The notes: generated by a model from the letters alone, not told the origin. 45,686 bases of DNA from Streblomastix strix (GCA_008636045.1 SNRW01000012.1:1-45686), one strand, 5' to 3'; numbered from the stretch's first letter, positions 11,001 to 43,900 are shown. Made by a program: numbers and translations.

Positions 11001-12559
11001 AGTAAAGTTGGGAAATCTGTGTAACCAACACATTGCTATTCTTGTTATTAATTACGATATTAAGATTTATAAGAGGTTAGATAATCAAATTCAAAATAAT
11101 GTTATTGAAATTATCACTTTGATTTTTTAGTTGATGTTTTATTCTTATTAAATTTCATTATTTTCTTTTCCAGTAATATTTATTCTTATTATAATTAAAG
11201 TATATGCATCTTTTTTTAATGTTGCCATAACATCTGACCAAAATACTCTTCACTCATAAATTATCCACAGTTTTCTCGCACAAGAAGTATATTATCTGGT
11301 TTAATGTCCCTGTGAACAATTCCAAGTGAATGACAATGCGATATTGCAGATAGGATTTGAAAAAAGAGGATTCTAACATCAGTTTCAGAGAATTAATTCT
11401 AAAAAAGTTGGTTATTAACTGGAAATTAAGATGAATTGTGATTTTGGTTCTCATCAATAAAAGGATTCGCATAGAGTTGTGTTAAATTGCCACAATCTGC
11501 TCTATTATAATCAATAATATAAAATAAAATAAATTTTGAAATTCATAATATATAAATTTAAATAAATTATATATTACATACATATCCATTATCATATAAA
11601 CATTATGCTCACCATTAAGAACTTCATGAATACCAATTATGTGTTGATGAGGTGAAACAAGACCAGAAAGAAGAAACTCAGCTTCAGCATCAAGTAACTC
11701 TTATGATTTTTCTGTTGAATTTAAAATTCCAATTCCAGAAACATTTCCATTTCTAATTCCAGATCCAAACTAAGTTCCACTCTACTATCTCTTCCTTATA
11801 ACCTTAACAGCTCATCCAAATCCATTTTCCTTCTCACGAGCGAGTCTCACCTCTCCACTACTTCCAGTTCCAATCAACATAACATCTTCATATCGATCTG
11901 TATATACTGAATCTAATCTCTGTTCAACTTATTCATTATATGAGGTATAGGTTCTGAAACGGAATATTGCGTCTTCTGAATTTGTGTATTATATGAAATA
12001 CGATATAATATATGAATCAATAATAAATAAATATATAACCTTTGCCACTTGAGTCGAGTGGATTTGTGAGGCAGACCATGTCTTTGTCATTTAATGCGAT
12101 TCTTTCACTTTTTTTAACCTTTTAATTGATATAAATAAAAAGTTTATATAATAAATATAATTAACATACAAGTTTTCTATTGACAAACACTCCATGTTCA
12201 CTTATACATCATAAATAGAGTATAAAGTAATATAAACATAAACAATAAATTAAAATAATAAATAATAAATACCTTTCACATATCAAAAAAATATCTTTCC
12301 CACCACTAAACATCTCCGGATTCACAATTCAGCAATGATACTAATTGACTCAGTAATCATCCACAGGTACAGTCATAAGCTTATCATTACCAATATGTAT
12401 GATAGGTGCTATCAGAGCTACACTCATTATTGCACGACAGAAAGACTCTACATGTCCCCATTCTTCTTGATCTCGCTATGTTGGGGAGAAGTTGTCCATG
12501 CAGGGGGCTACAGCTTGTGTCTCGGCAAACTGGGATTGGTAGCTGTCAAAGGAGTTCAT
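8036..12559 (-). CDS. SQ/TQ-cluster + FHA + Ser/Thr kinase (Chk2/Rad53/Cds1-like architecture), ~1418 codons, with 4 internal in-frame TGA
   Basis: N-terminus [15 protein letters not shown]...PTQ; FHA-like WGHV...HIGND...VNQYHC.I...[26 protein letters not shown]; kinase motifs [58 protein letters not shown]. Exons 12559-12273, 12200-12170, 12118-12040, 11975-11582, 11501-8036. The 3' end could extend to a TGA at 7988. Confidence 0.88.
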
Positions 12560-12693
12560 ATGTTCTGATGATTAAATATAAGAATGATAATATAAATATT
12601 AAATGGTTGTTGAGGATTGAAATATCGATAAAGAATTGTTTTTCTAAATTTATTCAAACAGTTTGTTTAAATGATTGCACAATATATTTTCAC

Positions 12694-40900: not shown

Positions 40901-43900
40901 AGTTGCAGTTAAAACAACATGAATTCTTTTTGATAAAGAAAATTAATAATAAGGAAATTCAAGTTTATCTTCTTCAAAGCAATCTCTTTCATAGATCAAT
41001 ATATCATCTCCTAAATTATTATAATCTAAATCTTCATCATCAACATCTAATTAAACATCAACAGAATCTCTATATTCTACATCTTCTTTTTCTTTATCAT
41101 CCTCTACATCAACATCTTATTAATATTTATCATCATCTTCTTCTTCATCCACTTAATCAAAATTCACTTCATTTAAACATGAAAAAGAATAAAATATTAA
41201 ACAAATAAGTTAGATAACTGATAATTAATAATAATACAGTGATTCATATTTATCTTCAGATTTGTCATCAATAATAAATCCAACATTAACATCTGAACAA
41301 TTCTTTGATGAACAAGTCAAATATCATTCAGATAAAAACATCACAAAAGATATAGTTGAATTTAATTAATATTCAAAAATGTATCAATCATCATCATAAC
41401 AATTTGACTAAATTTTAATCATTAAATCAACTCCAATAAAAAGAAATTTAGCAACAGGAACCAAATGGAAAATACCACCTTGGTTTACAAAAGAAGAATG
41501 CGAAAAAATATAAAAATAAAAAATAAAAATTGAAGATTTGATGAAATAATTATTATTAATACCTTCAAGATAGGTAACCATAGATCATTCAGCTGTTGGA
41601 GATAATATTATCATTGTTTCACATAAGAATGTTGTATATGTTCTATTATGGCACCCAGCAATACCAATTATGTTATCATAGAAAAAATAATAAATTAATT
41701 CTACAACTCGATTAGCTCTTTTAGCATATCATGGTTTGGATCCTGATAAATCTCCAGCTGAAGATATTAATAAGATTAAAGATCAATTCAATTTAAATGA
41801 AAAATAATAAATTAAATTATCTATGAATCTTCAAGCTGTTTATACACTTCAATTTTCTTCTAATGTTACTGCACTTGGTGCTGTTAGTATTTGTGGGAAT
41901 TAATATTTTGTTATTTGTACTGCATAACCTTGTAAAGCTAGGATATTCAGATTAAACAGCATTGAGGATGATATTGAGTTCTAGAAAAAGAATTTGAAGT
42001 TATGGGGTATGAATATAGAAATTATTATTTTGAAAATATTAAATATGAAAATCATTACAATTATTGTTTTACTTTTTTTCTTATTTCTTATTAAATTATT
42101 TTCAGATCTTGCTAATACACTTGAATTTAGCTAAAATTAAATGAACATATTCAATATTCTTAAAGAACCTTCATACAATCCGCAAGTCTCTCCTGACGAA
42201 TAATTTATTTAAGTCGATTCTGGAGAAAATAAGTTTTTATTAAATTTTTGCAGCTAATAATTAACAGTAACGCCAATAATTGATATGAAATTGAATAATC
42301 CAGCTTCATCGTGTTTATTGACTACATTAGAGAGGTCAGTCAAAAGATTAGGGCCAGAAGAAGATGTGATGCCAAATGAAGCTCTATTTGGAATGAATCT
42401 GAATGATGAATAAAACTCATAGACAAAACACAGAAAACATTTTAAACCAGACAAATCTTTATAAGATGAATTATTTTCGCAACCGTCAAAATATGGAAAT
42501 TTGGATTCAACTCAGATGGATTAAAGATATAAAGGACACGAAGGAGCATTATTATTAATTGGAGGTTAATATGGAATAGTTGAATATGTTGTTATTCCTT
42601 TAGCAGCATTGATGTTAGATATTCCTCCATCGAGATATAACTCTGCTTTTGATGTATTAAAGATTGGAATGCAATCAAGAGAATAGAAATTAAAACATTC
42701 AATTCACGAGTTATTCTCATTTCCTCCTGAATCTCAATTTATGGATTTAGGAAGATCTCCAGTTTATATTTCTGAAGATAATAGAAGAGTGATAATTAAA
42801 GGCGAAAGAACATATGCTGTTAGATTTGATCCATATTTAGGAAGAAGTGTTTGGCTTTCATTGTTCAATTAAGGTGGAATAAGAAGTATTGTTCCTGTTA
42901 ATGAATATCCGAAGACTAGATTGAAAGAAAATGCAAAAAAGTTATAATATAGAAGAAATAAATTAATGCAAGATAGAGTTAGGATAAAATTTAAGATTGA
43001 GATGAAGAATTTATAAGAACAATTTCAAAATCAAGAAACTTAAGATTCAATCTCAATTATTTCAACTTCTGATTAGTCATCTCCTTCAGATTTTTAAAAA
43101 GATTAATAAGAATTATAATCAAATGATTCAAATTAAGCAAATGTTCCAAATCCAGAAATTGTCTGGATAGGAAATGATAAAGATTCTTTTATTTCATTTG
43201 GAGTAATATCAAAATAATAAAGAATGAATAAACAAGTATAATAACTTCCTTCTGTACCAATTGCAATCACTTATTTGCCTTTTCTGCATGCTCTTGCTGT
43301 TTTATTCAGAGAAGATTTCAACTATTTAAATTATAGTAACAATAACAATTAAGATAATAACGATAAAAATATTATTTCAGACTTAAATTGTGATAACATT
43401 GATTCATTAATTCAGAATAGTGAACTTTCAGATTCTAATAAACATAATAAAATAGTTAATTAATAATAAGAATTATAAATAAGCAAAATCTTGTTTAATG
43501 ATTAAATCACTAATAATATCGATAAGAAGAAGTAATTGCAATGGGTATTCACTGATGTTGTAAATCAACCTTCTAATTTATATCCAAATCATATAATCAT
43601 GGCTAATCAATAAACCTTTAGAAAACTTCTTAAATAATATTAAGAATATTAAAATAAATAAATAAATAAATTTGCCACTAATTCATAAAATGAACATAAT
43701 TCTGATTAACAATTATCTATTTAATAAAATAATAATTATAATATTACAATGTCTATTGAAACAGCTATTGAATAAACTGGTGTTGGATCAGAGGACGTTA
43801 ATCTATTTCCTTATGTTTATGTTGCTTATGATCATTTTGCTGAGAAATATTCTACATTTCATTCAAATTTCAACTCCATAAATAAATTGAATATTGAATA

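Follow-up and report, generated by a model that had tools for sequence, protein, structure and literature searches.

In seven spirotrich ciliates (from Uronychia, Stylonychia, Sterkiella, Tetmemena, Paraurostyla and Uroleptopsis; PMC10089648) the nuclear genetic code is proposed to read UAA, UAG and UGA as Gln, Gln and Arg (Q/Q/R). In Uronychia setigera 987 coding TGAs were matched to Arg, about half of them at more than 90% allele frequency (PMC10089648). A simpler code is described for Streblomastix strix, a protist of the termite gut, with TAA and TAG as Gln and TGA as stop (PMC13002328; PMC1501061). The S. strix locus considered here is a stretch of 45,686 nucleotides (nt) (SNRW01000012.1:1-45686), called the window, with 24% guanine plus cytosine (GC) and no N, in which eight TGA codons stand in frame inside four genes. 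The occurrence of in-frame internal TGAs in S. strix is confirmed. The proposal that the organism uses a Q/Q/R code, with UGA as both a rare Arg codon and a stop, we consider evenly balanced between true and false. The further statement, that S. strix has no dedicated stop codon, UAA/UAG/UGA meaning Gln/Gln/Arg and proteins being ended at UGA by context alone, is tentative and lies a little below that.

The coding background was taken from 16 exon blocks picked by hand, 10,211 codons in all. TAA and TAG behave in these blocks as Gln sense codons, with 829 in-frame TAR codons (TAA 703, TAG 126), and Pfam domains span them. TGA amounts to 8 of the in-frame codons (0.08%) versus 3.9% off frame. 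The blocks also hold 48 TGG and 282 Arg codons, including 183 AGA and 37 CGA, and TGA represents 8 of 290 Arg-or-TGA codons. TAA outnumbers CAA (703 vs 226), whereas TGA is scarcer than CGA (8 vs 37), a rarity that suggests inefficient or young decoding. The genes and codons concerned are listed below; minus-strand TGA coordinates give the codon as p..p+2, and an asterisk in a motif stands for the TGA.

8036..12559, minus strand: gene with an FHA-like domain and a Ser/Thr kinase; 5 exons, about 1,418 codons, 4 internal TGAs
12559-12273, 12200-12170, 12118-12040, 11975-11582 and 11501-8036, minus strand: kinase exons, intron borders set by hand
12350..12352, minus strand: internal TGA 1, in the FHA-like domain, DDY*VNQ; a public 69-aa protein ends here
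12329..12331, minus strand: internal TGA 2, in the FHA-like domain, YHC*IV
11812..11814, minus strand: internal TGA 3, just N-terminal to the kinase AVK motif
11114..11116, minus strand: internal TGA 4, in the low-complexity insert that separates HRD from DFG; residue not inferable
17254..19630, plus strand: gene with multiple ubiquitin-like (Ubl) units and a RING-like region, Pfam ubiquitin E 3e-59; multi-copy family
17815..17817, plus strand: internal TGA 5; AGA (Arg) in other copies from sequencing runs X1, X3 and X4
34444..37017, plus strand: helical-repeat (ARM-like) paralogue, 3' end uncertain
35023..35025, plus strand: internal TGA 6; the S. strix paralogue P0001 (27% identity) has Lys at the aligned position
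37986..45350, plus strand: large gene of more than 2,200 codons with open exons and no visible 3' end, candidate DDB1-like by motifs
40431..40433, plus strand: internal TGA 7, YAG*GAR; residue not inferable
40920..40922, plus strand: internal TGA 8, KTT*ILF; residue not inferable

The initial annotation had reported eight in-frame TGAs in four genes, and all eight were recovered at their positions and in the coding frame. The nine gene ends that it had read as TGA are indeed all TGA (9/9), the ends being inferred and TGA being the only stop under table 6. Its claim that frameshifts are absent holds within the long exons, and fails to hold with certainty in the ARM paralogue, which is possibly frameshifted near 37010. 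Introns that would take out the TGAs were looked for at all eight sites. At none of them (0/8) was there a frame-keeping GT-AG intron of at least 45 nt with a GC of at most 0.17, a limit set by the upper range of 16 introns in the window (GC 0.06-0.16, 51-99 nt); the nearest candidate, at 11114, has a GC of 0.19. Introns over the internal TGAs were rejected on these grounds, and programmed frameshifting was rejected since the reading frame goes on unchanged past the TGAs. Selenocysteine insertion found no support: an Rfam scan of the window gave no selenocysteine insertion sequence element, although a divergent one could escape, and Cys in a homologue was seen at 11812 only. Neither another credible Rfam match nor a tRNA gene was found in the window.

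Sequencing runs with matching DNA are mostly termite-gut metagenomes. A separately assembled contig from run X1 covers 9720-12591 at a depth of 29.5, spans the four kinase TGAs and agrees with the window over all 2,872 nt (0 differences). An assembly slip is thereby excluded; an amplification artefact is not, since X1 may be the source sample. As a check of the majority allele, the four kinase sites thus lie on a difference-free contig, though contigs drop rare variants, and at 17815 other copies have AGA.

In the kinase gene the exons are separated by four GT-AG introns of 51-80 nt. Its four TGAs are spread over three exons and hence do not lie in a single genomic frame. Pfam Pkinase matches fall on exons 4 and 5, and the HRD, DFG and C-lobe motifs are intact. 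The FHA match is weak and under the Pfam cutoff; the FHA-like domain is degenerate, and a PDB search with the FHA exon returned nothing usable. That annotation under the described code would split the TGA-containing genes, as had been anticipated, was borne out for the kinase: a public 69-residue record ends at its first TGA, this being one of three truncated pieces looked up. Internal TGAs occur in 4 of the 9 gene groups of the window, which makes it likely that proteins in the public S. strix set are split at many such sites, of which one has been demonstrated. The kinase domain is interrupted by very long Q/S/N-rich inserts (9250-11330, minus strand), which add about 140 residues from HRD to DFG and more than 500 from DFG to the end of the activation loop. 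Beyond the assumed kinase stop, 15 coding-like codons continue to a second TGA (7988-8038, minus strand), and the first may be a ninth internal TGA.

With respect to the residue, Arg is seen directly at one of the eight sites and Lys at one; Arg is narrowly top at two that were scored jointly, Trp ranks above Arg at one, and three are uninformative. The direct case is 17815, where AGA was found in all three runs with an aligned contig: a divergent copy at depth 350 in X1, a contig of 1,950 nt with 76 differences in X3 and a weak contig at depth 2.9 in X4. For the two FHA sites, both positions were set alike to each of the 20 residues and scored with Pfam FHA. Arg scored highest at 13.4 bits, ahead of Gln and Thr (13.2 each), Ser (13.1), Glu (12.8) and Val (12.7); only these six passed the filter, and the 14 that failed it include Trp, Cys, Gly, Leu and Lys. 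At the position of 11812, solved kinases have Cys (CDPK1), Arg (CDPK3) or Tyr (CDPK4). Assignments of YAG*GAR at 40431 to a conserved Arg motif and of KTT*IL at 40920 to a conserved Trp were unsupported and were dropped.

No residue other than Arg is either observed directly or tolerated at each of the five informative sites, and internal UGA was not found to coincide with Trp positions, 11812 alone fitting Trp. Random nonsense changes are computed to come from Arg in only 11-21% of cases and from Gln in 22-40%, though it is in the Gln-rich regions that the residue is not inferable. On this sequence evidence the residue at internal UGA leans to Arg over Trp. The initial annotation had held that either would fit; Arg stands, and Trp is disfavoured by the AGA at 17815, the Lys at 35023 and the FHA profile, though it is better at 11812. 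Given the lean to Arg, two suggestions made along with it, A-to-I editing of UGA to UGG and a comparison with the Trp codes of Condylostoma and Blastocrithidia, become unlikely. Its broader idea of UGA as a rare sense codon beside a stop role is the best-supported reading.

Under a Q/Q/R code, UGA inside an mRNA would be read as Arg and UGA at the mRNA end as stop. All three stops would be read as their first-position C neighbours, UAA and UAG as CAA and CAG (Gln) and UGA as CGA (Arg). The Arg tRNA could be the one for CGA, with a G-U pair formed at the first codon position, or a derivative with a UCA anticodon. At a distance from the poly(A) tail this tRNA may prevail over a weakened eRF1, with termination winning close to the tail. 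These tRNA, eRF1 and poly(A) steps are taken from ciliate models; in the Condylostoma model it is the proximity of the poly(A) tail that determines termination. Decoding of UGA is probably inefficient, which would keep UGA rare and make gene ends tend toward backup TGAs.

All eight internal TGAs sit at least 1.8 kilobases upstream of the gene end, in numbers too small to speak of depletion. The base after the TGA is G at 4/8 internal sites and 0/9 ends, again in small numbers. Within 5 codons after the end, a further in-frame TGA is present at 4/9 ends versus 2/18 off-frame controls (P 0.009; P 0.04 with the ARM gene left out; small numbers). The backup TGAs at gene ends are consistent with leaky termination.

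Several observations weigh against a sense codon with the meaning Arg. The FHA margin for Arg is tiny, and all scores are under the Pfam cutoff of 20.7. At 11812 the Pfam order of the ten residues tried is Val, Tyr, Trp (24.5), Cys/Leu (23.8), Ser, Gln, Arg (22.3), Lys and Gly, so that Arg is eighth. The sites at 11114, 40431 and 40920 give no residue information. Yeast reads UGA mostly as Trp and Cys, with Arg a minor product (PMC4748822). At 17815 the T of the window is absent from every contig aligned at that base, and the gene differs from X3 by 15 synonymous and 15 non-synonymous changes (counted over 38 of the 40 rows shown, of 437 rows in all). This site is the sole direct codon comparison, and a nonsense change in a spare copy fits it equally well. 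In the ARM gene a small frameshift near 37010 may cut off the tail.

These points bear on an alternative that we consider unlikely but more serious than the others, namely that the TGAs are nonsense mutations carried by spare paralogues, or by alleles that intact copies shelter, with truncated or no protein as the outcome. The AGA in other copies of the Ubl-RING gene, the membership of the Ubl-RING and ARM genes in families with other copies and the possible frameshift in the ARM tail all agree with it, as do best residues that vary by site (Arg, Trp/Cys) and are all one base from TGA. Streblomastix also has UPF1 (PMC1501061). Against such decay stands the count of 0 frameshifts in the 4,886 codons of the four TGA genes, where a shifted frame would hit a TGA within about 25 codons. 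In a decay model with three substitution spectra, about 2% of changes create a TGA and eight neutral TGAs require 359-460 substitutions. The predicted frameshifts are about 28, 14, 7 and 3.5 at 10, 20, 40 and 80 substitutions per indel (range 3-31), and the probability of finding none runs from below 1e-10 to 0.05 over these ratios. The test is weakened in that the ratios are assumed and the substitution spectrum from run contigs is noisy.

The kinase carries four stops, yet its HRD, DFG and C-lobe are intact and better conserved than the inserts, and its region is the single, difference-free contig of X1. Four neutral TGAs in this gene alone imply 4-5% divergence. Compared with run X4, from another study, the C-lobe differs at 1/201 nt and the insert at 18/541 nt (Fisher P 0.034; Poisson P at most 0.002 for the C-lobe piece). 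To the credit of decay, if all 19/742 differing nt were neutral and on the window lineage, the probability of at least four TGAs would be 0.13-0.23. Over 9 gene groups the TGAs show no more clumping than chance would give (P 0.16 and 0.27), which is as expected for a genome-wide rare codon. Decay is plausible for the Ubl-RING and ARM genes and hardest to accept for the kinase. Taken over the four genes, rare sense use of UGA is more likely than decay.

It is improbable that UGA has no single meaning, termination being weak and near-cognate Trp, Cys and Arg tRNAs inserting at loosely constrained sites where TGA is tolerated. Such a state would account for the mixed residue preferences, for the location of most sites in loops or variable columns and for the backup stops at gene ends, and Trp, Cys and Arg are known near-cognate inserts in yeast (PMC4748822). 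However, four leaky stops per mRNA demand high readthrough at each, and Trp and Cys fail the FHA filter. Still more improbable is UGA as context-dependent Trp, as in Condylostoma and Blastocrithidia, or as a codon edited A-to-I to UGG. Reassigned UGA usually means Trp, and Trp scores 2.2-2.6 bits over Arg at 11812; nevertheless AGA is found at 17815 and Lys at 35023, the FHA match is lost with Trp, and TGG exceeds TGA by 48 to 8 in a window of 24% GC.

A very small chance is left to editing of internal UGA by U-to-C to CGA (Arg) in the mRNA, like that of fern and hornwort organelles; to our knowledge a nuclear editor acting on UGA alone has no precedent. Such editing would yield the residue favoured above, and stop removal of that type exists (PMC12548569). 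In-frame TAA and TAG are, however, retained in Streblomastix complementary DNAs (PMC1501061), so there is no general stop editing, and general U-to-C editing is unlikely. Least probable of all, amplification or assembly errors could appeal to X1 as the possible source sample and to read support confined to 4 of the 8 sites, but a second assembly holds the four kinase TGAs, an error rate giving eight stops would break frames too, and the change at 17815 is A to T and not a deamination.

The remaining features concern the other genes. In the Ubl-RING gene a RING-like Cys/His pattern can be read off the sequence. At least three versions of this gene are present in X1, one of them at depth 212-476 with another arrangement of ubiquitin-like units. 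Just past the gene, 19529-19900 is a high-copy repeat with a summed X1 depth of about 1,700, versus about 25 in nearby unique DNA. After the annotated ARM end, 37005-37240 (plus strand) contains five further in-frame TGAs within 20 codons, and in the neighbouring frame, which holds two TGAs, codon use is coding-like. Similarity of the ARM tail to the paralogues in the window was not significant. The gene at 37986..45350 is possibly DDB1-like, a label that comes from motif likeness; the name given in the initial annotation found no family match in Pfam or PDB searches, and single-sequence structure prediction of the stretch failed (predicted local distance difference test score 31).

A six-frame codon-usage scan of the window showed no additional clear exon with an internal TGA, save in the tails of the kinase gene and the ARM gene, which are uncertain. 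An intron-rich Hsp70-like 3' end (1-1488, plus strand) closes with TGA TGA, and a Pumilio-repeat gene occupies 2874-7573 (plus strand); the scored exons of both are free of internal TGA. The segment 2408-2594 is exon-like on both strands by codon scoring and has no Pfam match. Homologue searches yielded one paralogue and the window's own public protein, NCBI EZS28_000171 of Streblomastix strix, and nothing else. No related loci were present in the metagenome contigs, viral contigs or prokaryote genomes searched, and an NCBIfam search gave no relevant family.

If the Q/Q/R reading is true, S. strix would become the first metamonad in which all three stops serve as sense codons, and the code described for this much-cited organism would have to be revised. 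The reading would also lend independent support to nuclear UGA as Arg, which in the literature searched was found in one computational ciliate study only. Splitting of the proteome bears, moreover, on claims of gene loss in the S. strix lineage, which lacks mitochondria. No report of internal TGA in Streblomastix was found in the accessible portions of PMC13002328, PMC10703272, PMC11687900 and PMC1501061; this coverage did not extend to Keeling and Leander 2003 or to the genome paper (PMC6765251), either of which could mention it. The literature searched likewise contained no report of Q/Q/R in an oxymonad, and among follow-ups naming Uronychia it returned only PMC10089648.

The described Streblomastix code (Keeling and Leander 2003, as cited in PMC13002328 and PMC1501061) shares with the present reading TAR as Gln and TGA at gene ends. 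Its basis was tubulins and a small number of highly expressed genes, and internal TGA goes unmentioned in the accessible text of these two papers. Condylostoma, karyorelicts, Blastocrithidia and Amoebophrya likewise have no dedicated stop and depend on context (PMC11687900, PMC10089648, PMC6394959). In the all-three-stops code of Condylostoma, UGA is Trp (PMC11687900, PMC10089648) and is read by a short-stem tRNA-Trp, whereas in S. strix UGA is a minor codon for which Arg is favoured by the evidence. In the mitochondrion of the diatom Craticula vanensis UGA is putatively Arg as well, but this code is organellar and UGA makes up about a third of Arg residues (PMC13672107). The same meaning of UGA is suspected for plastids of algae and mitochondria of tunicates (cited in PMC13672107).

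The spirotrich Q/Q/R code, absent from the initial annotation, is a closer precedent than the context-dependent codes named there, for which the Trp comparison is unlikely. As in the spirotrichs, TAA and TAG are Gln in S. strix, and TGA ends genes and is rare within coding regions (PMC10089648). The ciliate case draws on genome-wide counts and read mapping, that of S. strix on eight sites; coding TGA falls at Arg positions in the former, and Arg is direct at 1/8 sites in the latter (PMC10089648). TGA is also rarer in S. strix, with 8 per 829 TAR versus 987 per 11,723 in U. setigera (PMC10089648). As read here, UGA use in S. strix works like the ciliate Q/Q/R code; that the organism belongs to this class is not established, given the mixed evidence on Arg and on the majority allele. 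Unlike the ciliates, S. strix is an oxymonad, an unrelated lineage, and a Q/Q/R code in it would, if true, have arisen independently outside the ciliates and stayed concealed for twenty years in a textbook case of a simpler code. Two unrelated Q/Q/R lineages would indicate a repeatable route by first-position misreading, apart from the route through a short-stem tRNA-Trp.

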